In this document: in pieces, positions 120-49,224 of the stretch | Layout: each line of letters starts with the position of its first letter | How positions within the stretch are numbered: the stretch's first letter is position 1 | Notes under the pieces: model-generated | The model's database searches: none | What the model was told of the DNA's origin: nothing | The model's input: the letters and a program-made list of their open reading frames with translations, nothing else | Program-made: the position numbers and the translations under genes | Assembly (NCBI GenBank): GCA_016432625.1 | Contig: CP066697.1 | Coordinates: forward strand, 151,113-215,112 | Source: Candidatus Berkelbacteria bacterium | GTDB taxonomy: Bacteria > Patescibacteriota > UBA1384 > 2-12-FULL-50-11 | Reading direction: 5' to 3' | Length of the DNA stretch: 64,000 nt

Positions 120-1880
120 TCAAGGAACCGGCGTCGGCACTACTGCTGGGGCGGTAACACTTTCGTTAAAACCATACTCAACGCTGATCGCTTGCTTTAG
201 GATCGGTAAGCGCTGTATCCACCAGCTTGGTGACATTGATATTTTTACTTCGCTTGCCTCGTAGTTATCTTTAAGAGCTGCTTCGGCGGCGCTGCTGGTT
301 TTGTGGCGAATCGATGAGGAGATATCATTCTTACTGATGTCGGCCACGCCGTACCCTCCACCGGCAATCTCGAAGCTTAAGACCGTTTTGTCTTCGGAAT
401 AACTTTTGAAAGCAATGGCCGGCTCCGATCCCTCAGGGACTTCCAGCCTCTTGCCTTCCTCTACTTGAGCCTCAAGAGCTTCTTTGAGTTTGGCTTTGGC
501 TACCTCTTTGTCGAAAACAATCGCCGAGAGCTCAGCGACCAATTTAGCGGTGGCGGTGTCAGTCTGATCATCCACTTTCTTGTCGACGGAGCGTTCTTTG
601 ATGTTTTGGTTGATCGCTCCATCAAGCAAAGTTTGACCCGCGGCCTTTGTGGTTAGCTCAGCTTTAGCTTCGTCTAAGGCCTGCTTCTCTAGCTCGGCGT
701 AGGCTTTATCAACGTCCTCTTTGGTCAGAACGGTTACCTGTTTGGTCGTGCCGCCCGATGTTGAACCAGTGCCGCTGATGCGGCTCGATAGCCCGTTAAC
801 TGCGAAGCTGACGTTCGCTAGGTTATAACCCTCGCCTGCTTCGCTGGCGGTGATTGCGATATTGACTGAAGATGAATTACAAACACTGCCGCCGCCAGAA
901 AACGACCCGGCTGGAATTGTTGCGGCGCTATTTGTGGTGAAGGTTTTACCTGAGGCCGTGACTTTGCTGCCAGCGGCGACGGCATGGGCGTTACTATCCT
1001 CACAGTTTTTGAAAGGAACTGTCCCCGTTGCTTTCGTGCCAATATCTTTTTTGCCAGTGGCTGTCACAGCTTTTGTTAGTGATTTTTCCGCGACCAGTAG
1101 ATTGCCGACAACACTTGTCGCTTCACTGTCAGCTACCGTCTTAGCGTTAAGTGTTAGGGTTTGAGCTACGGCTTTAGCTGGTAACGTTACCGTTACTGTT
1201 GCTTTCGGTAATAAAACATAGGTGATGCCAAAGGCCAAAATGAGTAGAATTCCAGCAGCAATCAATGACTTCCACGGCATTTGAAAATTGAATTCACGTC
1301 GCGCGGTCGGAGTACGGCTAATTATCGCTGGCAGTTCTTCGGCAGGCGCTCTATCTTGGGGGATAATTTGAACCGGCTCGCTGGGGGTTATCTCTTGGAC
1401 GGTCTCTTCCTTCTCGACTGCAACTGGTTCAGGTGCTGGTTGCGGTGGTTCAGCCTCGATAGCTTCTTCTATAGGTGCTTCAACGGGCTGTTCTGGCGCC
1501 TCTGTTTTTTCACCGCCAATGACTGTCGGTGGAACGTAGCGATGAATCGGTGTGCCGTCAGGCAGCGCCTCGTCCTTAGTAGTGGCCGGCTGAACAGTTG
1601 GCGAGGAGGGTTTTGGTACTTCCCGAACAGTTCCCAAGCTAGCGTAAGCTTCTATCCCGACTTGGGCGGCTAGACGCTGGCCAACTTTATTACCGGTAAT
1701 AATAACCACTTCTTTATTAGATTCTTTTGCTTGTTTGGCGAGGAGTTTTAAGTTAACCAAGCTTTGGAAGAGGGTGCTGTTTTTTGGTACCACAATACCA
1801 ATCTTGCCTCCACCAGCTTTAGTGAGTTTATCAATGACGGAAGTAATCTCTTCGTCTGGTTCTAAGTAGACTGGTTCCAT
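120..1880 (-). CDS. Bitopic membrane protein of unknown function, immediately downstream of the ftsA-like gene: ~200-aa cytoplasmic N-domain, one TM helix, Ser/Thr/Gly/Ala-rich extracytoplasmic region
   Basis: 586-aa ORF. The hydrophobic segment WKSLIAAGILLILAFGITYVLL lies mid-protein with a Pro/Glu-rich linker before it. No FtsZ GGGTGTG motif. Positioned between ftsA-like and ruvX. Confidence 0.5.
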   Translation of the reverse strand: MEPVYLEPDEEITSVIDKLTKAGGGKIGIVVPKNSTLFQSLVNLKLLAKQAKESNKEVVIITGNKVGQRLAAQVGIEAYASLGTVREVPKPSSPTVQPATTKDEALPDGTPIHRYVPPTVIGGEKTEAPEQPVEAPIEEAIEAEPPQPAPEPVAVEKEETVQEITPSEPVQIIPQDRAPAEELPAIISRTPTARREFNFQMPWKSLIAAGILLILAFGITYVLLPKATVTVTLPAKAVAQTLTLNAKTVADSEATSVVGNLLVAEKSLTKAVTATGKKDIGTKATGTVPFKNCEDSNAHAVAAGSKVTASGKTFTTNSAATIPAGSFSGGGSVCNSSSVNIAITASEAGEGYNLANVSFAVNGLSSRISGTGSTSGGTTKQVTVLTKEDVDKAYAELEKQALDEAKAELTTKAAGQTLLDGAINQNIKERSVDKKVDDQTDTATAKLVAELSAIVFDKEVAKAKLKEALEAQVEEGKRLEVPEGSEPAIAFKSYSEDKTVLSFEIAGGGYGVADISKNDISSSIRHKTSSAAEAALKDNYEASEVKISMSPSWWIQRLPILKQAISVEYGFNESVTAPAVVPTPVP

Positions 1881-3756: not shown

Positions 3757-5454
3757 TCAACCCGAAGAATTAAGGCACTTCGCTTTTATCCGGCGGACGC
3801 CCTGCGAAGACGCCTCTTCTTTGACAATCTCGAATTTGCCTAACTCGCCTGTTCGTTTGACGTGTGGGCCGCCGCATAATTCCTTAGAAAAATCCCCAAT
3901 TTTGTATACCGTAACTTTATCACCGTATTTCTGACCAAATTCAGCCAGCGCGCCACTCTTTAGCGCCGCCTCTTTATCCATTTCTTCGCAAACTACGCTC
4001 ATGTCAGCTTTAATTTTTTCGTTGACGATCTGCTCAACTTTTTTCAGCTCCTCATCAGTTAATTTTCGGTCGAAAGCAAAGTCTATTCTTAGCCTGTCGC
4101 TGGTTACATTCGAGCCGCGTTGGACGACCGACTCGCCTAAAACTTGGCGCAGGGCAGCGAGCAATAGGTGATGGGCTGTGTGATGTTGGATGGTTTTCTC
4201 CTCATGATCCGCTAGACCCCCTTTGAATTGTTTGTCTAGGCCCGCGCGCGAAACCTCCTGGTGAGCCGAAAATAGCTTGGCGAAATGTTCCGCGTCAACT
4301 TTCCACCCCAAGCTAATCAAATGCTCCAAAACCATTTCTTTGGGGAAGCCGAATGATTCGTACATGTAAAAAGCAAGTTCGGTAATTTTCTTTTCGTCGC
4401 GATCGTCGCTCGAAGCGAGCCATTTATCGAGGTACCCTTTTGCACGGGTCATATTGCTTTCAAACTGGCTTTTCTCTCTGCCAAAAACTTCCATAATTTC
4501 GGTGGCGCTCTTTAACTCGTATGTCTTGCCGTAAAACGTCCGAATTTGATTAACCGCTTCCTGCCATTTTAATTCTGCTGCGATGTTCGAGCCTAAGAAA
4601 ATTGCCTTCCGTATTAAACGGCGCAAGACATACTCGCGACCTTTATTGGCCGGCGTAATATCGGAGGAGACCAAAAAGACGATCGCTCGCAAGTGGTCGA
4701 TAATCACCCGCGCTTCAACCCTTTTGGATGAACCAATACTTTCAACCCAACTTTTAAACGGCTCGATTTCCCAAACGGAATTCTTACCTTGCAGCGTGGC
4801 ACTCAGGCGTTCCAGGCCGCTGCCGGTATCGACGCCAGGCGTGTCGAGTTTGGCGAACTTGCCATCGCGATCGCAGTGATACTCATTGAAGACCAAGTTC
4901 CAGACTTCAACGCCGTCAATATAAATTTCTGTTGTCGGGCCGCAGGGACCCTCGTCGCCAGTTGGGCCCCAGAAATTGTCTTCGCGAGCGGCGCGTCGAA
5001 TATCTTTAACGCCTAGCACCTGCCAGATTCCCTCGGACTCAGTGTCGGCTGGTATCTCTTTGTCCCCACCAAACACGGTCACATAAACTCGGTCTTCGCT
5101 AACGCCGAGCTCGTCACGAACAAAGCGCCAGGCTTCATCTATCGCCACTTTCTTCATGGCCATGGAACTCTTTTCGCCAAAGCGGAAATTGCCCAGCATC
5201 TCGAAACTTGTTAGGTGAGTGTCGTCGCCGACTTCAGCGATATCGCTAGTGCGGATTACAGGCTGAACTGTGGCAACTTGTGGTGCTGGGGCATCGCTCG
5301 GGTGGGTGTAGAACGGCTTGAACTGTTGCATGCCGGCGGTTGTGAAGAGCACTGAAGGGTCGTTCTGCGGCACAAGCGGCGAAGGCGGCACGACGTCGTA
5401 GCCACTTTCCTGAAAATAATCCAAAAATTTTTGCCGTAAGGAAACGAGGTCCAT
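3757..5454 (-). CDS. alaS: Alanine--tRNA ligase, compact form (catalytic plus editing domains, no C-Ala domain)
   Basis: N-term LRQKFLDYFQESGYDVVPPSPLVPQNDPSVLFTTAGMQQFKPFY (class II AlaRS motif). Editing-domain HHTAHHLLLAALRQVLG (HxxxH) and CGGPHV zinc motif. Only 565 aa. Confidence 0.85.
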   Translation of the reverse strand: MDLVSLRQKFLDYFQESGYDVVPPSPLVPQNDPSVLFTTAGMQQFKPFYTHPSDAPAPQVATVQPVIRTSDIAEVGDDTHLTSFEMLGNFRFGEKSSMAMKKVAIDEAWRFVRDELGVSEDRVYVTVFGGDKEIPADTESEGIWQVLGVKDIRRAAREDNFWGPTGDEGPCGPTTEIYIDGVEVWNLVFNEYHCDRDGKFAKLDTPGVDTGSGLERLSATLQGKNSVWEIEPFKSWVESIGSSKRVEARVIIDHLRAIVFLVSSDITPANKGREYVLRRLIRKAIFLGSNIAAELKWQEAVNQIRTFYGKTYELKSATEIMEVFGREKSQFESNMTRAKGYLDKWLASSDDRDEKKITELAFYMYESFGFPKEMVLEHLISLGWKVDAEHFAKLFSAHQEVSRAGLDKQFKGGLADHEEKTIQHHTAHHLLLAALRQVLGESVVQRGSNVTSDRLRIDFAFDRKLTDEELKKVEQIVNEKIKADMSVVCEEMDKEAALKSGALAEFGQKYGDKVTVYKIGDFSKELCGGPHVKRTGELGKFEIVKEEASSQGVRRIKAKCLNSSG

Positions 5455-8116: not shown

Positions 8117-8341
8117 TCATATCGACGGAATGAGCAACTGGGCAATCACTGCCAGGACAAAAACCGTGGCAAAAATTACAGAAGCTCGTAACAGCAATTT
8201 TTCAATACCTCGGCGACTCCGGTACGACATACCTTCTCCGCCAAAGGCCCCACCTAGACCGGTTCCCCGATGTTGCAGCAGTACGGCGATAACTAGCAGA
8301 AGTCCGGCAGCGATTTGGGCGACCTGTAAGAAACTGGTCAT
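8117..8341 (-). CDS. secG: Preprotein translocase subunit SecG
   Basis: 74 aa, two TM helices flanking the Gly-rich loop LLQHRGTGLGGAFGG typical of SecG. Confidence 0.75.
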   Translation of the reverse strand: MTSFLQVAQIAAGLLLVIAVLLQHRGTGLGGAFGGEGMSYRSRRGIEKLLLRASVIFATVFVLAVIAQLLIPSI

Positions 8342-8422
8342 GTACCGGATATCCTAAGGCTTTGCATGTTTGGCGTCAACCCCTTTTACTCTTTAAGCGC
8401 TTCGATTTTCTACGTTGCTCTT

Positions 8423-8494
8423 GAGGCCACGAGGGGATTTGCACCCCTGTAAAACGGTTTTGCAGACCGTTCCCTGACTACTCGGGCACGTGGC
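8423..8494 (-). tRNA. tRNA-Cys (anticodon GCA)
   Basis: Acceptor GGCCACG/CGTGGCC, anticodon arm ACGGT-CTGCAAA-ACCGT, T-arm AGGGG-TGCAAAT-CCCCT (unusual G55), discriminator T. Short D-stem. Confidence 0.65.
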
Positions 8495-8643
8495 CGATTC
8501 CCGGGTATTGTACCTTTTAGCTCGTTAAAAAACGAGGCTATAGTCTGGCATTTTCGCGAGAGGGGGTCTAAACTGTACGGGCGTATTTACGCGGTACCGG
8601 GGATGGATCCCCGCGAACCTCTTATCAATGCTACAGGTGCAAC

Positions 8644-9366
8644 ATGTCGATAGTCTCACAGCAAAAACGATCATCACTCGCCCCCACGGGGGCCACGACC
8701 AGTTCGGCGAATGGGCTAATCAGCCCGGCACTCGCCAATGCCAGTCTCCATACCTTGGAAACGCTCGGCCACAGACGGCTCCTGGAAACCAGGCGCGTCC
8801 AGTTCGATAACGTTATCGAAAGGCTTAAGGGGGACGGCCTGACTATGAGGGAGCTCAGAGAGCTGCTGCAGAACACATGCCGCGACATTCCTGACGGGTT
8901 GATCCTGTCTGGCGAAGAGTCGCTGCGCCATCGTCACGAAGAGTTGGGGGTGACGCTGACCTGCCGATCCGACGGCAGCGTCGATGTCTGCTGGAGCGTG
9001 TACAAGGGGCGATCCGACGTCCTTCGCTTACTGCTCACCAGCGACGATCAAGGCTTGGAGCTCGAGGAGCTCAGGTACAAGCCGGAAGAGTTTCAGATGC
9101 CAGGTCTGACAGCTCCAACTCGCCACTTGGAATGGCTGCTTCCAGTCTACGACTGGATAGCGGCCCACGACGTCAGGGGGAAGGACCACTTGGCCTGGAA
9201 ACAAGTCGAAGCGCTCTATGGGCAGACCATCCCGTTTGTCCGCCTTGACCGCAAACGCCACAAGACCCTCGAGGATCTCGGACGCATGCCGTCGATGTTC
9301 CAGCCATTACGGCAGGAATTCCAGCGGTTGAACGCGCTTGGATCCTTGATCCAGTTCCAAAGCTAG
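8644..9366 (+). CDS. Hypothetical protein (GC-rich ORF lying between tRNA-Cys and tRNA-Gly)
   Basis: 240-aa ORF with high apparent GC relative to neighbours. No recognisable domain. Confidence 0.45.
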   Translation: MSIVSQQKRSSLAPTGATTSSANGLISPALANASLHTLETLGHRRLLETRRVQFDNVIERLKGDGLTMRELRELLQNTCRDIPDGLILSGEESLRHRHEELGVTLTCRSDGSVDVCWSVYKGRSDVLRLLLTSDDQGLELEELRYKPEEFQMPGLTAPTRHLEWLLPVYDWIAAHDVRGKDHLAWKQVEALYGQTIPFVRLDRKRHKTLEDLGRMPSMFQPLRQEFQRLNALGSLIQFQS

Positions 9367-9427
9367 CCCTGTAGCACCCCGCCCAGAAAGCCCGAGACAC
9401 GACGTCCCGGGCTTTCCTCTTTTTCTG

Positions 9428-9500
9428 AGCGGTAGACCGGTCTCGAACCGGCGACCTTATCCTTGGCAAGGATACGCTCTACCAACTGAGCTACTACCGC
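9428..9500 (-). tRNA. tRNA-Gly (anticodon GCC)
   Basis: GCGGTAG-TA-GCTCAGTTGGTAGAGC-G-TATCC-TTGCCAA-GGATA-AGGTC-GCCGG-TTCGAGA-CCGGT-CTACCGC-T. Canonical cloverleaf. Confidence 0.85.
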
Positions 9501-9582
9501 AAAACTGTTGTAATTTTACCGATTCCGCCAGTAAAGAGCAATTGGCTTGCCCGCTTCCAACAGAAGCGGTAAAGTTTTGGCG

Positions 9583-9906
9583 ATGAGCAAGAAGTCGAAA
9601 CGTAACATTAAGGCTCTACTTGCCAAACGTGCGCAGCTCGAAGAGCTTAATCGCGGCAAGACGAATCTTGTTAGTATCCCTGGTGCGCCGAAATTAGCTC
9701 GACCCGAGGCACCGACTCCGGTGGCCCGGGAACTAAATCGACCGGAACTCCCCGAATACGCTCCGGGCAAGGGAATCTGGCGAACGCTAATTGGCACGGC
9801 AATTATTGCCGTAATTCTTGTTGCTGTTGTCGTTCTAGATAACTCGCGTCATTTCCTGGCGCCATTCGGCGACACACTTTACAACGCCTTGCGCTTGAAC
9901 GACTAA
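9583..9906 (+). CDS. Small hypothetical membrane protein (basic N-terminus, one TM helix)
   Basis: ORF-track 9547..9906; the internal ATG at 9583 (MSKKSKRN) was chosen. TM segment LIGTAIIAVILVAVVVL. Confidence 0.35.
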   Translation: MSKKSKRNIKALLAKRAQLEELNRGKTNLVSIPGAPKLARPEAPTPVARELNRPELPEYAPGKGIWRTLIGTAIIAVILVAVVVLDNSRHFLAPFGDTLYNALRLND

Positions 9907-17030: not shown

Positions 17031-18008
17031 ATGACAGATGTTTTAGTTATCGGTTCAGGTATGGCAGGGCTTTCAGCAGCGATTTACGCTGCTCGTTATA
17101 ATTTGGAAACGCTTGTTATTGGTCATGAGTTTGGCGGTGCCACCTCAACTGCTTGGACTATCGAGAACTATCCCGGCTACGTCTCAATCGATGGCTACGA
17201 CCTAATGATGAAGGTTAAAGAGCAGGCAGAAAAGACCGGCGCCAAGATTGTCACGGACCGAGTTATTAAACTCGAAAAGAAGAACGATCACTTCGTGGCT
17301 CAAACTTTTGAGGGCGAAATGTACGAAACTAAAACTATTATTCTTGCCTGTGGCGCGGCGCGAAAAAAAATGGGACTGGCACGTGAAGATGAGTTCGCAC
17401 TCGGAAAAGGCGTCCACTACTGCACTACCTGCGACGGCCCGCTCTACAAAGGCAAAACCGTCGCCGTAATCGGTAGCGGCGATTCGGCGGTCAAGGGTAT
17501 AAAGCTCGCCGTACAGTACGCTGAGAAAATTCACTGGCTAATCCGTGGTGAAGTTATTAAAGCCGAGCCGTTCAATTATGAAAAAGTTAAACACTACTTC
17601 GGCGACAAGATTATTGTTCACTACAACACGTCCATTACCGAGCTTTTGGGCGAGAAACGACTTAACGCCGTCAAGCTTAATACCGGTGAGACCCTAGAGC
17701 TTGATGGCTTGTTCGTTGAGATCGGCGCTCTTCCTGAAGTTGAGCTCGCTCACCACTTAGGCGCGGCGCTCGACGAGTTCGGTTTTATAAAAGTAGACAA
17801 CATGATGGAGACTAACGTTGATGGCATCTACGCTGCCGGCGACGTGACGAACTTTTTCGGCCACTTTAAGCAAGACATTACCGCCGCGGCAATGGGTTCA
17901 GTCGCCGCCACTAGCGCTTTTAAGCATATTCAACACGCCCCAACAGTCCAGGAGGCGAAAGCCACGCCCGCCGAGCAGCCATCAACGGTTAGTAATTTGA
18001 ATAAGTAG
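17031..18008 (+). CDS. trxB: Thioredoxin-disulfide reductase
   Basis: FAD motif VLVIGSGMAGLSAA; redox-active CTTCDG (CxxC); NADPH motif VAVIGSGDSAV. Confidence 0.85.
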   Translation: MTDVLVIGSGMAGLSAAIYAARYNLETLVIGHEFGGATSTAWTIENYPGYVSIDGYDLMMKVKEQAEKTGAKIVTDRVIKLEKKNDHFVAQTFEGEMYETKTIILACGAARKKMGLAREDEFALGKGVHYCTTCDGPLYKGKTVAVIGSGDSAVKGIKLAVQYAEKIHWLIRGEVIKAEPFNYEKVKHYFGDKIIVHYNTSITELLGEKRLNAVKLNTGETLELDGLFVEIGALPEVELAHHLGAALDEFGFIKVDNMMETNVDGIYAAGDVTNFFGHFKQDITAAAMGSVAATSAFKHIQHAPTVQEAKATPAEQPSTVSNLNK

Positions 18009-18117
18009 TGGGTCGGGTGGGGATTTCCTCCGCTGCGCTCCGGTATCCCCACCCTCTTGGCCAAGTGCAAAAACCGCCCATGAGGGCGGTCTCTGCATTG
18101 GTGGGTCGGGTGGGGAT
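18008..18117 (-). repeat. Two partial copies of the tRNA-Lys T-loop-to-3'-end segment (ATCCCCACCCGACCCAC) downstream of tRNA-Lys, each preceded by a related ~50-nt sequence; a rho-independent terminator lies between them at 18071..18096
   Basis: GTGGGTCGGGTGGGGAT occurs on the + strand at 18008-18024, 18101-18117 and 18235-18251 (the last inside the real tRNA). ACCGCCCTCATGGGCGGTTTTTTG reads as a terminator on the - strand. Confidence 0.7.
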
Positions 18118-18235
18118 CTCGCGCCTTCGGCGCTTGAAAGCTCCTTCGCTCACGCTCTGTCGCTATCGAACCCACTTCGTGCGTTCTCTCCCCACCACAA
18201 ACGAAAAAGCTGCCAAATGGCAGCGCTTCCGTTTG

Positions 18236-18307
18236 TGGGTCGGGTGGGGATCGAACCCACGACACACGGCTTAAAAGGCCGTTGTTCTACCACTGAACTA
18301 CCGACCC
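18236..18307 (-). tRNA. tRNA-Lys (anticodon TTT)
   Basis: GGGTCGG-TA-GTTCAGTGGTAGAAC-A-ACGGC-CTTTTAA-GCCGT-GTGTC-GTGGG-TTCGATC-CCCAC-CCGACCC-A. Confidence 0.85.
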
Positions 18308-46409: not shown

Positions 46410-47192
46410 ATGGAAGTAATGAAACTCAGGCGGTTACTGGCTTTAACTGTCGGGCGCAATCTGCTTATTGCCGCGGTTTTTGCGTCGGTTGGCGTCGTGC
46501 TACTCTTGACCGCTCCCAAGGAGAAACCTGTACAGGCCCAAGTTGGTGGGCAATACAGCGCCAATTGGGAAGCGACCCACCTACTTATCGCTCGCTTGGT
46601 TCAACCTGACCTGTTAACTAAACAGAAGTGTGAAACCGTGAACTCAGTGACTCGCCCTTACGGTGAGCCCGCTAACTCGGAAGTGGCCATCGGCCCGTCC
46701 CGCTGGGAGGTAAGAGGTCAGATGGATGACGGCTCTCGGTTTAAAGAAATCTGGACCACGGCCCAGATCCCTGCTCGGATCACTTACGGTGAGGGAACCT
46801 GGTACACGAACTGGTTTTTCAACGGTTACTGCAGTACACCTGGCTTAAAGTTAAAGATTATGGGTAACCAGAACCAGGAAGACTGGATCATCGGCTTCAT
46901 GCAGGACAGAAGCCTAGGAATGTCGGCGATGGAATTTCGGACAATCGGTGTCAACGACGCGATGACTAATACTAGTAACTATCCTGATGGTAACGTACGG
47001 AACATCAGTAAAACGACTTCTTGCCAACGAACAAACCGCTGTGTCTTTACAACCGGTCCGTATGCCTGGACGACTTTCCACGAAATCGACCAAGCTACCG
47101 AAAGTAAGTACGAGAATGTCGGAACCTTAATACCTGCTCACTGGGATGTGAGGGGTACGTTATGTCCTGTGGGGGATAACCGTTGTGATTAA
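46410..47192 (+). CDS. Secreted Cys-containing protein, paralog 1 of 3 (novel family)
   Basis: Signal peptide. Shares with the two downstream ORFs the motifs W(E/T)V(R/K)G, FKE(I/V)W(T/S)..Q(I/L)P, TTSCQ, HEID and the C-terminal GD(N/T)RCD. Six conserved Cys. Confidence 0.6.
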   Translation: MEVMKLRRLLALTVGRNLLIAAVFASVGVVLLLTAPKEKPVQAQVGGQYSANWEATHLLIARLVQPDLLTKQKCETVNSVTRPYGEPANSEVAIGPSRWEVRGQMDDGSRFKEIWTTAQIPARITYGEGTWYTNWFFNGYCSTPGLKLKIMGNQNQEDWIIGFMQDRSLGMSAMEFRTIGVNDAMTNTSNYPDGNVRNISKTTSCQRTNRCVFTTGPYAWTTFHEIDQATESKYENVGTLIPAHWDVRGTLCPVGDNRCD

Positions 47193-47469
47193 TATGACGC
47201 CGCAAAAGTTTTCGAACGCAGTTTTGGCCTTGAGCGTGCTAGTTTTGCTTTTGGGTATCTCAACATATTGGCAAAGTAACGCGGAGCCAAATCTTGACTC
47301 AAAGACCTCGGTTACAGAGCGGGACGCCGCACTTTCGAGAGCTAGAATCGGCGACGGCACGTATAGTTTCTCAACTAGCTTCATCCCAGGGCTTGGCTAC
47401 ATCGGCTCTGCCGAGCAGACCAGACAAAAATTTAAGCAAGATAATAAAGGAGCGATAACCAACCAATGA
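47185..47469 (+). CDS. Small secreted hypothetical protein between paralogs 1 and 2
   Basis: 94 aa with an N-terminal signal-like hydrophobic segment. Confidence 0.35.
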   Translation: MINMTPQKFSNAVLALSVLVLLLGISTYWQSNAEPNLDSKTSVTERDAALSRARIGDGTYSFSTSFIPGLGYIGSAEQTRQKFKQDNKGAITNQ

Positions 47470-48170
47470 AGCGTGCTGCTAGTCTGTCCGTCATATTGCT
47501 AGGGATACTAGGTTTAGTTCTGGTTAATTCGCAACAAGTGAGCGCTCAAAGTAGCGACTACACAACCAAGTGGGACGCAAATAGTCTAATCGTTGGGACG
47601 TTGCACCGCCCGATTACTGGTAACTCCGAGGGCGATTGCGTTAATGGCACGCTTCTTGGTAATTACGGCGACCCGGCCGGATCAGAAATCGCCTTCGGTA
47701 TTAATCAGTGGACCGTCAAGGGGCGTATCACTGGCTCGACAAAATTTAAAGAAGTCTGGTCGGCACCGCAGTTGCCTTATGCTTACACCTACGGCGGCAC
47801 TTGGAATGGCAGCTGCCAAAACCTTAAGCTAATTGTCTCCGGCAACAACAGCATGACTGATTGGCTGATGGGCTACATTTCTAATGAAACATATACGCGG
47901 AGCGTAATGGCTTTTCGCTCAGTTGGTATCTCGCAAGGTATCAATAATAAGGTTAACGTCGACGTTTCTCGGGCTGACAACATCGGCAAAACGACGTCAT
48001 GCCAACGCCAGAACAACTGTTTGTATGCCACTGGCGGCTATGGCTGGACGGCTGCGCACGAAATCGATGACGCCCATGCCTGGAAGCCGATCAATGTTGG
48101 TATATTAATGCCTCTCAAGTGGACGATCAGTGGTGATATCTGCGACGGTGGAGACACTAGATGCGATTAA
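47466..48170 (+). CDS. Secreted Cys-containing protein, paralog 2 of 3
   Basis: Signal peptide (LSVILLGILGLVLVNSQQVSAQS). Same conserved motifs and Cys spacing as paralogs 1 and 3. Confidence 0.6.
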   Translation: MKRAASLSVILLGILGLVLVNSQQVSAQSSDYTTKWDANSLIVGTLHRPITGNSEGDCVNGTLLGNYGDPAGSEIAFGINQWTVKGRITGSTKFKEVWSAPQLPYAYTYGGTWNGSCQNLKLIVSGNNSMTDWLMGYISNETYTRSVMAFRSVGISQGINNKVNVDVSRADNIGKTTSCQRQNNCLYATGGYGWTAAHEIDDAHAWKPINVGILMPLKWTISGDICDGGDTRCD

Positions 48171-48901
48171 AAATCATGGCTAATAGATTAGGCATTTTGA
48201 GGGTCTTGGTGGCGGTGCTAGTCCTTTTGGTGGGGTCAATCTTAGTCGGCGACGTGCCGGCCGTAGCACAAGCCAGTGACTACACAATCAACTGGCAAGC
48301 CACTGATCTAATCGTCGCCCGACTTAAGAAACCGAATTACGCACATAACCAGGCGGAGTGCACAACTTGGCGGCTTGACCCCCTTGGTACTCCCATCGAT
48401 TCTGAAGTGGCTATAGGTGTCCATAAGTGGACTGTCAGAGGCGAGCTTCCAGGCTCAGCAAGATTCAAAGAAATCTGGAGCACTCCCGCATTACCGAGAG
48501 CTTTCACATACACAGGTGATTTCATCAATGGCGAATGTCGAAACGGTCGCTTGATTATCGATGGCTTGGCAGGTCCTAACGACTGGCTGACCGGATATCT
48601 CAATGTAAGTAACCTTGGAGTCTCAGCCATGGAAATAAGAACGGTGGGTGTCACAACTGAGGTCGGACATCACAATCTAGACCCAGGCAGTGTTCGCAAC
48701 ATCGGCAATACTACATCATGTCAGGCGAGTGGGGGCGATACTGATCGCTGTACCTACACGACCGGTGCTTATAGTTGGCTCACTCTCCACAGGTTTCAGT
48801 CGGGAATGGATAAGAAGCACATGAATCTCGGTACGATGATCCCGCTCAAATGGTCTGTCAGCGGTACCTTCTGTGAACCTGGCGACAATCGCTGCGACTA
48901 A
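48161..48901 (+). CDS. Secreted Cys-containing protein, paralog 3 of 3
   Basis: Signal peptide. Conserved motifs. Ends GDNRCD like paralog 1. Confidence 0.6.
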   Translation: MRLKIMANRLGILRVLVAVLVLLVGSILVGDVPAVAQASDYTINWQATDLIVARLKKPNYAHNQAECTTWRLDPLGTPIDSEVAIGVHKWTVRGELPGSARFKEIWSTPALPRAFTYTGDFINGECRNGRLIIDGLAGPNDWLTGYLNVSNLGVSAMEIRTVGVTTEVGHHNLDPGSVRNIGNTTSCQASGGDTDRCTYTTGAYSWLTLHRFQSGMDKKHMNLGTMIPLKWSVSGTFCEPGDNRCD

Positions 48902-48915
48902 CGGGCGAAAAATCT

Positions 48916-49053
48916 GCGGTCCCAACGGGAAGTCTCGCAGCTGAGCTGCTCGGAAAGCTCCTACGCTAACGCTCCGTCGCTACCGAACCCGCGGGTTCGA
49001 CACCGCGAGCAGGTAGTAAACACGGCCCGGAAATTCCGCGCCGTGTTCCCTAG
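48916..49053 (-). repeat. Partial tRNA-Glu T-arm/3'-end copy (CGGGTTCG...ACTTCCCGTTGGGACCGC) with a ~50-nt insert in the T-loop, lying downstream of the real tRNA-Glu
   Basis: GCGGTCCCAACGGGA occurs on the + strand at 48916-48930 and 49053-49067. The intervening sequence is homologous to the one in the tRNA-Lys locus. Confidence 0.65.
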
Positions 49054-49127
49054 CGGTCCCAACGGGAGTCGAACCCGTGATTTCCGGGATGAAAACCCGG
49101 CGTCCTAGGCCACTAGACGATGGGACC
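49054..49127 (-). tRNA. tRNA-Glu (anticodon TTC)
   Basis: GGTCCCA-TC-GTCTAGTGGCCTAGGAC-G-CCGGG-TTTTCAT-CCCGG-AAATC-ACGGG-TTCGACT-CCCGT-TGGGACC-G. Confidence 0.85.
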
Positions 49128-49224
49128 AATTTACGAAAGCCTAACAGGTCAATTTTACTGAATACGCCACCAGTTATCAATGCTAAGATGATCGCCAATA
49201 ACCGACTTTCTTGGTAATAATTAG

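Follow-up and report, generated by a model that had tools for sequence, protein, structure and literature searches.

We analyzed a 64,000-nucleotide stretch of Candidatus Berkelbacteria DNA (assembly GCA_016432625.1, contig CP066697.1, positions 151,113 to 215,112 of the forward strand; “the window”, in whose numbering coordinates are given), in which a tRNA-Glu gene and a tRNA-Lys gene are each followed by a short unit that ends in a further copy of the tRNA's own 3′ end. All features of both loci lie on the minus strand. The tRNA-Glu(UUC) gene (49053..49127), called by ARAGORN and by Rfam (tRNA, 63.7 bits), does not encode its CCA and has a sigma-70-like promoter, TTGATA-17-TAAAAT (49152..49180), whose hexamers are also kept upstream of tRNA-Glu in the relative L120. 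Directly after the gene stands a hairpin, ACACGGC...GCCGTGT followed by TTT (49020..49046), which by direct reading is a weak terminator-like element and which a terminator scan did not call as a terminator. Next comes a left arm, GCGGTGTCGAACCCG (48992..49006), located by direct reading and a single-sequence fold; it repeats the 3′ part of tRNA-Glu (CGGGTTCGAC...ACCGC) in inverted orientation and with a deletion inside it, and its pairing partners are the right arm (48984..48991) and the final 5 nt of the repeat that closes the unit. The right arm, CGGGTTCG, consists of the T-stem 5′ strand and the first four T-loop bases (TTCG). It is followed by a 50-nt GA/GCG-rich insert, GTAGCGAC...GCTGCGAG (48934..48983), which holds the motif core TAGCGACGGAGCGTTAGCGTAGGAGC (48957-48982) and a hairpin, GCAGC-TCA-GCTGC (48937-48949), and then by the direct repeat ACTTCCCGTTGGGACCGC (48916..48933), which runs from T-loop A58 to the last base of the tRNA with one extra T. 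An earlier note on this DNA had described the minus strand of 48916-48991 as CGGGTTCG / 50-nt insert / ACTTCCCGTTGGGACCGC, that is, as the second instance of a partial tRNA copy interrupted in its T-loop; direct reading bears out its sequence and coordinates, and ARAGORN and Rfam place the tRNA-Glu gene beside it.

The sister locus is organized in the same way. The tRNA-Lys(UUU) gene (18235..18307; ARAGORN, Rfam) is followed by an intrinsic terminator, GCTGCC-ATTT-GGCAGC and then T5 (18209..18224), and by a pair of arms (18167..18196) in which the left arm GGTGGGGA-GA-GAACGCAC and the right arm GTGGGTTCG (18167-18175) enclose a GAA loop; these arms fold as a hairpin, and the first bases of the repeat pair with its outer 8 nt. 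A 49-nt insert (18118..18166), with the hairpin GCGCC-GAA-GGCGC at 18121-18133, leads to a second copy of the tRNA-Lys 3′ end, ATCCCCACCCGACCCAC at 18101-18117 (18099..18117 with its CCA-forming continuation). Beyond it lies a short unit (18008..18090), in which a terminator, ACCGCCC-TCAT-GGGCGGT with T5, is followed by an inverted arm, GGGTGGGGAT (18045-18054), and a 20-nt loop, ACCGGAGCGCAGCGGAGGAA; a short version of the insert core, GAGCGCAGCGGAGGA, precedes a third copy of the tRNA-Lys tail ATCCCCACCCGACCCAC, which closes the short unit at 18008-18024.

Two further features of these loci concern annotation. The tRNA genes of the window lack an encoded CCA (Lys, A-CAA; Glu, G-CTA), whereas the tmRNA gene encodes it; the second Lys repeat reads on into CCA in the window (18099-18101) and in the relative L122 (about 4237-4239), and in L125 CCA is encoded in the tRNA-Lys gene itself. 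Across 17930-18274, both strands hold mechanical open reading frames (ORFs) of 54-111 aa that cross the tRNA-Lys gene and its repeats, for example, 18008-18274 on the plus strand, which ends in ...WGSNPRHTA; they are antisense or sense read-through of tRNA sequence and are not to be annotated as genes.

The two tRNA loci share the insert and not its flanks

Compared with each other, the Glu and Lys inserts are identical at 38/50 positions (76%, close to the 75% that had been estimated by the earlier note), a score reached by none of 500 shuffles, whereas the stretch from the tRNA to GGGTTCG is only 51% identical between the loci (p = 0.11, not significant). The similarity in this pairwise alignment thus runs through the insert and is not confined to the tRNA-derived flanks, and both tRNA-specific 3′ copies are split at the same T-loop position. 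Within the inserts, a 30-nt core, TAGCGACRGAGCGTKAGCGWAGGAGCTTTC, occurs at two sites only in the window, one in each insert, with 0 expected by chance, and 27 of its 30 positions agree between them. The insert hairpin differs in sequence and keeps its pairing (GCGCC/GGCGC in Lys vs GCAGC/GCTGC in Glu).

A downstream copy of the 3′ end follows just two of the nine tRNA genes in the window, those for Lys and Glu, and none follows the tmRNA gene. ARAGORN and Rfam call no tRNA at the partial copies, where the tRNA 5′ half is absent. The distance from tRNA end to repeat is 117-122 nt and free of ORFs, the whole module is ~135 nt long, the period of the units is 134-142 nt, and the inserts are purine-rich (58-70%). 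Neither insert has terminal inverted repeats or target duplications, and the 64 kb hold no copy of the insert away from tRNA 3′ repeats, all three copies standing at such repeats.

The unit is conserved among Berkelbacteria

Syntenic loci were fetched from related genomes through their neighboring proteins, and for tRNA-Lys the comparison comprises those that adjoin trxB (n = 6, the window included). The unit is present at all six. In five of them (the window, L121, L124, L122, and L126), the unit is long and its insert, which enters at the same T-loop position, measures 48-50 nt, a length that stays constant across diverged sequence types of the insert. The sixth, L125, has a short unit only, whose repeat is preceded by the inverted copy of its own start and by a purine-rich loop of 18 nt, much as in the third Lys copy of the window. 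The terminal 16-18-nt repeat equals the 3′ end of the species' own tRNA in every species fetched; four versions of it occur among the six Lys loci (CCCGACCCAC, CCTGACCCAC, CTCGGCCCAC, and CTCGGCTCAC), matched by compensatory changes in the 5′ acceptor strand of the tRNA.

The degree of conservation is best judged against the sister genome, L121 (CofD 89% identical in amino acids, vs 67% for other relatives). Between L121 and the window, coding DNA is 68-78% identical and four-fold sites 35-49%, which is near saturation, whereas the stretch from tRNA-Lys to the repeat is identical at 109/117 positions (93%). In more distant species, the upstream part of the Lys unit is still 56-63% identical (p ≤ 0.004), and the inserts belong to diverged types. 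One such type is shared by L122 and L126 (80% identical), and double substitutions preserve both of its hairpins (GCAAG/CTTGC to GCAAA/TTTGC; GCCGC/GCGGC to GTCGC/GCGAC). Just upstream of the insert, all six long units have a hairpin with differing inner sequences, in which the T-stem 5′ strand and TTC serve as the 3′ arm. The 8-11-nt piece made of T-stem 5′ strand and TTCG also pairs, as the 3′ arm of this conserved hairpin, with an inverted T-arm-like sequence. The 93-nt short Lys unit is present in the window and missing from L121, the insertion or deletion falling exactly at the repeat boundaries, which parallels the tandem repeats of E. coli (see below). The long unit was never seen empty, and none of the related loci fetched has a partial copy with an uninterrupted T-loop.

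Because the relatives conserve the unit and the repeat tracks the tRNA, the Lys unit looks largely vertically inherited and under purifying selection. As read from these alignments, it is an old element and not a decaying scar, and its terminal repeat evolves in concert with the tRNA. We had also considered that insert types turn over or are transferred horizontally among the genomes with similar trxB, and rejected this, as other genes make L121 the true sister and leave the rest roughly equidistant.

The tRNA-Glu locus is more variable in the relatives. In L002 and L003, the partial copy is 30 nt long and has AGCCGAG in place of the seven T-loop bases, and L001 has no partial copy at its tRNA-Glu. 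In L004 and L127, the gene of a large serine recombinase overlaps the tRNA-Glu 3′ end and stands there instead of the unit; in L127, this 512-aa gene (8223-9761, plus strand) covers the 3′ 40 nt of tRNA-Glu (9722-9796, minus strand), and no second copy of the tRNA end was found within 10 kb of it, the sole match being the T-arm of tmRNA.

Gene order around both modules has also changed. In L122 (4024-4260), the entire tRNA-Lys module, comprising tRNA, terminator, unit, repeat, and a second terminator, is inverted relative to L121 between the same flanking genes (trxB and an F420-ligase-like gene), and the window and L124 have the tRNA-Lys orientation of L121 relative to trxB with different genes on the far side. 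In the window, three tandem paralogues of a Cys-rich secreted protein without a Pfam hit (46410-48901) lie 3′ of the tRNA-Glu module, whereas L120 (212-940) and L002 (2965-3633) have just one homologue, placed 5′ of the module between tRNA-Glu and a deacetylase gene; therefore, either the tRNA-Glu module or the gene block has changed sides.

The order of parts is that of the E. coli RtT repeats

In E. coli, 178-bp repeats lie behind the tRNA-Tyr genes of tyrT/tyrV, and knowledge of this element, RtT (rttR/tpr), at its one E. coli locus goes back to the late 1970s. The primary papers on RtT and rttR-tpr are reportedly those of Bosl and Kersten (1991, NAR 19:5863) and Altman et al. (1981, Cell 26:299), both cited in PMC11623569, and Egan and Landy (1978) and Rossi et al. 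(1981) are said to have treated the tyrT repeats as well. A 2024 preprint calls the mode of action of RtT unknown.

We fetched the tyrT-tyrV region of E. coli K-12 and read it directly. It gives four RtT matches of 133-137 bits and carries annotations for the rttR noncoding RNA and the tpr gene. The unit reads GGGGAAGGAT, an inverted copy of the repeat start, followed by GA, the hairpin GAAGCTT-CGACC-AAGGTTC, and again GA; the hairpin ends in the T-stem 5′ strand of tRNA-Tyr plus TTC. A 68-nt spacer, CTCGAGCGCCAGCGAGAGAGCG...CCCGAAGGGCG...GAGTA, then leads to ATCCTTCCCCCACCACCA, the tRNA-Tyr sequence from T-loop to CCA. The Lys unit of the window reads GGTGGGGA / GA / GAACGCAC-GAA-GTGGGTTC / GA / 49-nt spacer with GAGCGTGAGCGAAGGAGC and GCGCCGAAGGCGCGAG / ATCCCCACCCGACCCAC(CA). 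Common to the two are the order of parts, both GA dinucleotides, the GAGAAC arm, GAGCG-NN-AGCG, and CCGAAGG. A general order can be written in which a terminator-like hairpin comes first and the start of the repeat follows in inverted orientation; after GA stands a second hairpin, with the T-stem 5′ strand and TTCGA as its 3′ arm, then a GA/GCG-rich spacer holding a GAGCG-NN-AGCG motif and a small hairpin, and last the copy of the tRNA 3′ end. Since E. coli has this order of parts, a partial tRNA copy that is interrupted in its T-loop is how an RtT repeat is normally built.

The correspondence extends to further points. The units follow a tRNA gene immediately and on its strand, occur in tandem, and end in a direct copy of the tRNA 3′ part from the T-loop on, with a terminal copy of 17-19 nt at 48916-48933 for Glu and at 18101-18117 and 18008-18024 for Lys; the T-stem 5′ strand with TTCGA and the GA/GCG-rich spacer with GAGCG-NN-AGCG precede it in both systems. 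The outer helix between the repeat start and its inverted copy is also part of the Rfam consensus structure of RtT. For Lys, this helix (GGTGGGGA/TCCCCACC, 8 bp) appears in the minimum-free-energy folds of the window, L121, and L124 and is absent in that of L122; the outer pairing of the Glu unit is limited to GCGGT/ACCGC, at the far end of the repeat. The center of the left arm shows a detail of its own, reading GA (18187-18188 in the window, likewise in L121 and L122) as in the direct T-loop, where an inverted copy predicts TC; the Glu unit has TC there, and E. coli RtT has GA on both sides of the hairpin.

At the curated gathering thresholds of Rfam, neither the Lys nor the Glu unit of the window gave a match. 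In E-value mode, the top match for the Lys unit alone was RtT (RF00391), which covered the whole model (1-130) over 18099-18211, from the U-run of the terminator to the CCA after the second repeat, at 19.2 bits and E = 0.12-0.16. Membership thus fails at the Rfam threshold, while the architecture of the family is matched point by point. The units differ from E. coli RtT in that the tRNAs are Lys(UUU) and Glu(UUC) instead of Tyr, the period is 134-142 nt instead of 178 nt, an intrinsic terminator precedes the Lys unit, and the host is a member of the Patescibacteria and not an enterobacterium.

We therefore favor, with somewhat better than even confidence, that the Lys and Glu elements are RtT-like repeats in the 3′ trailers of tRNAs, of the same kind as those of E. 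coli tyrT/tyrV (rttR, tpr). Both a mobile insert that stands on its own and a dead scar are improbable. Several observations weigh against this assignment. The 19.2 bits of the Lys unit are far below the gathering score of RF00391, which is 45, and the Glu unit gives no RtT match at E ≤ 10. With sequence alone, an nhmmer profile of the four E. coli copies reaches the units only at E ~1-30. RNAalifold on a MAFFT alignment yields a weak consensus fold and no significant covariation, and the hairpin covariation described above was read by eye from few sequences and could also be produced by palindrome correction at the DNA level. The spacer is 48-50 nt long vs 68 nt in E. coli, and the AGCG motif is not kept in L122 and L126. 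The Berkelbacteria units have no ORF like that of the protamine-like tpr: in E. coli, tpr starts at the ATG in GGATGAGAAG, where the Berkelbacteria units read GAGAGAAC, without ATG and with stop codons in the insert. Strong co-transcription is made less likely by the canonical intrinsic terminator that separates tRNA from unit at the Lys loci. Finally, the common layout could be convergent, as the outcome of some recombination process at tRNA T-loops.

What is established, then, is the anatomy of the units, their conservation, the concerted evolution of the repeats, the gain and loss of units at repeat boundaries, and the correspondence with RtT. New relative to E. coli are the identity of the tRNAs, the shorter spacer, the lack of tpr, and the host phylum, without any new principle. 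The RtT-type element appears to reach far beyond enterobacteria and tRNA-Tyr.

Alternative origins of the units

The most serious alternative, to which we give a low though not negligible probability, is that the units are remnants of attachment (att) sites or miniature integrative elements. Site-specific integration in the T-loop would have regenerated the tRNA and displaced its original 3′ end, the insert and hairpins would be recombinase-binding sequence, and the element would have shrunk to about 120 nt, perhaps being mobilized in trans. This accounts for the start of the repeat in the T-loop, and both loci do consist of an intact tRNA and a displaced 3′ fragment in direct orientation. The loss or gain of a 93-nt unit at repeat boundaries, the inverted tRNA-Lys module of L122, the opposite placement of the tRNA-Glu module relative to the Cys-rich block in L120 and L002, and the large serine recombinase that overlaps the 3′ end of the same tRNA-Glu in L004 and L127 also fit.

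There is a precedent in the ssrA islands of Dehalococcoides, which have a 20-bp repeat, insertion in the T-loop, and a conserved motif just upstream of the repeat, and in which the gene of a serine integrase (DsiB) overlaps the target (PMC3146451); the Islander database (PMC4383910) describes the displaced tRNA fragment in general terms. The units resemble such attR fragments in their conserved non-tRNA motif directly upstream of the repeat, in the tandem arrangement of repeats, and in the L127 recombinase gene, which abuts tRNA-Glu as DsiB does ssrA. They differ in having no integrase and no cargo in an interval of 93-142 nt, in being fixed and conserved in sequence across species, and in carrying the T-stem 5′ strand and TTCGA ~49 nt away from the repeat.

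These differences count against an att origin. At the very point where a crossover site ought to be uninterrupted, about 49 nt separate the two parts of the T-arm-like site, and a decaying scar would not be present at tRNA-Lys in six of six species and under purifying selection. Pfam scans of ten candidate ORFs of the window found no recombinase domain, no homologue from the 768,791-bp source contig was among the 120 best matches listed to the L127 recombinase, and that recombinase has no far-end repeat within 10 kb. Three viral scans gave chance matches or none and therefore provide no evidence for a phage-borne attP.

Much less probable, in our judgment, is the model of the earlier note, in which the insert itself appears to be the mobile entity; spelled out, an independent element of ~50 nt would have landed in the T-loops of pseudo-tRNAs, in the manner of a miniature inverted-repeat transposable element, for example, one derived from IS200/IS605 and inserted 3′ of a pentanucleotide such as TTCGA. 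That the insert is the shared part of the two loci holds, and several facts accord with mobility: the insertion point after TTCG/TTCGA is the same in the copies of two tRNAs, without target duplication; a hairpin lies near the 3′ end of the insert; the motif recurs in other phyla, often in hairpins of unrelated sequence; and the Lys and Glu inserts of this genome are more alike (76%) than orthologous Lys inserts in four more distant species (54-64%). The claim of independent mobility is not supported by the comparison with relatives, however, since no empty site was seen in any locus fetched and the whole unit stands at the same place by tRNA-Lys in five of six species, with a short unit in the sixth. 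Moreover, the insert lacks terminal inverted repeats, target duplications, and dispersed copies in the window, its length is constant at 48-50 nt across diverged types, and the significant similarity of the upstream parts of the Lys unit across species points to vertical descent. The left- and right-end hairpins of IS200/IS605 elements resemble each other, whereas the two hairpins of the L122/L126 inserts do not. The piece on the TTCG side belongs to a conserved hairpin, and the layout matches E. coli RtT, which had not been considered in that note and which carries the same “interrupted” layout as a constant part of its repeat.

We rate slightly lower still, and thus very low, the possibility that the units are a neutral by-product, that is, a decayed tandem duplication of the tRNA 3′ region whose repeats stay identical through slippage or gene conversion and whose inserts are alike as low-complexity GA/GCG sequence. 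The purine richness of the inserts (58-70%), the weak consensus fold, and the spacing of the repeats (90-140 nt), between which recombination has visibly removed or added a unit, would suit such an origin, but the conservation of the unit, 93% identical where four-fold sites are 35-49% identical, contradicts it, and it leaves unexplained why the 30-nt core agrees at 27/30 positions between the loci with 0 occurrences expected by chance, why the hairpins undergo compensatory changes, and why the same layout recurs in E. coli and other phyla.

Inserts in tRNA genes are known from other settings, which we compared with the units. Small tRNA introns at noncanonical positions in Thermoproteales archaea are said (Fujishima et al., 2010) to have transposed between tRNA genes, and they are similar in being short related inserts (tens of nt) at the same structural position of different tRNAs, the T-loop included; however, they lie in functional tRNA genes and have a bulge-helix-bulge structure cut by the archaeal splicing endonuclease. 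A bulge-helix-bulge intron was rejected here, as the copy lacks the tRNA 5′ half, its junctions on direct reading form no 3-nt bulges around a 4-bp helix, and the host is a bacterium. Patescibacteria have self-splicing group I introns, typically of a few hundred nt, at position 35/36, in the anticodon loop of functional tRNA-Asn/Asp genes (PMC13011429), which are likewise insertions associated with tRNA genes in the same phylum; a group I intron was rejected, with a 50-nt insert lying in the T-loop of a 3′ partial copy and no Rfam intron match. Four further candidates were dropped: a CRISPR- or guide-RNA-like scaffold with a 17-nt guide (no array, no effector gene nearby), a retroelement primer-binding site (not all of the copies continue into CCA), serine-integrase attP half-sites (no dyad symmetry relates the two halves of the insert), and a coding insert (stop codons, no conserved frame).

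The motif in other phyla

A strict pattern of the insert had no match in the genome contig collection, and a pattern of the T-loop junction had none in metagenomes. A relaxed motif scan, counting one genome per species, returned 106 loci. This count is in itself no evidence, because most of the loci belong to one Acidimicrobiia repeat family and one Opitutales insertion sequence element, and none of the Acidimicrobiia copies adjoins a tRNA. Rfam at gathering thresholds found nothing on the motif at 15 loci from other phyla.

Three independent matches do lie directly downstream of a tRNA gene. In L059, a metagenome-assembled genome of Planctomycetales, tRNA-Asp is followed by a terminator, the motif, a hairpin, and, about 136 nt away from the original, a 16-nt tRNA copy that starts at T54; L059 and E. 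coli RtT have the hairpin TTGCCGCA(A)GGCA in common. In L050/L115 (Omnitrophota, tRNA-Asp), a terminator, the motif, and a hairpin are followed by only a degenerate copy of the tRNA 3′ end (TTCAAACTCC). In L119, a metagenome contig, the motif behind tRNA-Glu is reversed and lies in a hairpin with the last bases of the tRNA, and a 16-nt repeat (14 nt exact) follows 84 nt downstream. These three cases suggest, from their arrangement, that the family may be wider than the Rfam RtT model.

Other occurrences of the motif have different surroundings. The Acidimicrobiia genomes (L008-L113) contain tens of copies of a ~60-nt intergenic repeat, ATGCGAGCGACGGAGCGCCAGCGGAGGAGCGGCC..CGGCCTGCGTGGCCGGGGAACGC (for example, L104 6038-6100, L102 65-130, and four in tandem in L078), whose motif is similar to the spacer of E. 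coli RtT (GAGCGCCAGCGAGAGAGCG). Two copies, those of L104 and L102, were read by eye; there the opposite strand forms a mini-ORF, M..AFPGHAGR.WPLLRWRSVARI..*, flanked on either side by overlaps of the ATGA/GTGA type, and the two variable positions of the motif are synonymous in its frame. L114 (~1472-1700, minus strand) has tandem partial units, GTCATTTCGAGC[C/G]ACTGAGCGTTAGCCCC.., which end in GTCATTTCGAGCGACTGAGCGTTAGCGAAGGAGTCGAGAAATC and close the AGCG motif into a loop with an ATTTCGA/TCGAGAAAT stem; hairpins of unrelated sequence likewise enclose the motif in L025, L026, and L072.

Proposed mechanism and implications

Taking the units as RtT-like repeats, a course of events can be proposed by analogy with E. 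coli. Transcription would read on from the tRNA into the unit, whose RNA would fold into an outer helix with internal hairpins and be cut back until its 3′ end equals that of the tRNA, yielding a small structured RNA that imitates the acceptor end. The repeat would be kept identical by the need for handling like that of a tRNA end, by slippage or unequal recombination between repeats 90-140 nt apart, or by both, and the number of units would change through recombination between repeats. We hold any particular function of the unit with considerably less confidence than the view that the elements are of the same kind as RtT.

A broader reading, which we regard as speculative and rather unlikely as formulated, is that RtT-like units are an old cross-phylum class of RNAs of tRNA operons, in which a lineage-specific hairpin scaffold would present a 17-19-nt copy of the cognate acceptor end. 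The copy would act as a mimic or decoy of the 3′ end of uncharged tRNA, read by the processing, the CCA-adding, or the stringent-response/translation machinery, and selection would keep it equal to the tRNA. Members of this class would be the Lys and Glu units of Berkelbacteria, the units behind tRNA-Asp in L059 and L050 and behind tRNA-Glu in L119, and E. coli RtT, with the Acidimicrobiia repeats as derivatives.

If the layout holds behind tRNA-Lys and -Glu in a minimal-genome member of the Berkelbacteria and behind tRNA-Asp and -Glu elsewhere, the element is no enterobacterial curiosity. The comparison singles out the parts that matter, namely, the copy of the tRNA end, the two hairpins, GAGCG-NN-AGCG, and the length of the spacer, and it marks tpr and the identity of tRNA-Tyr as dispensable. 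It also cautions that copies of a tRNA 3′ end downstream of the gene are not always integrase scars. Altogether, it would give a comparative basis for a broader covariance model and for experiments, and thereby leverage on the function of RtT.

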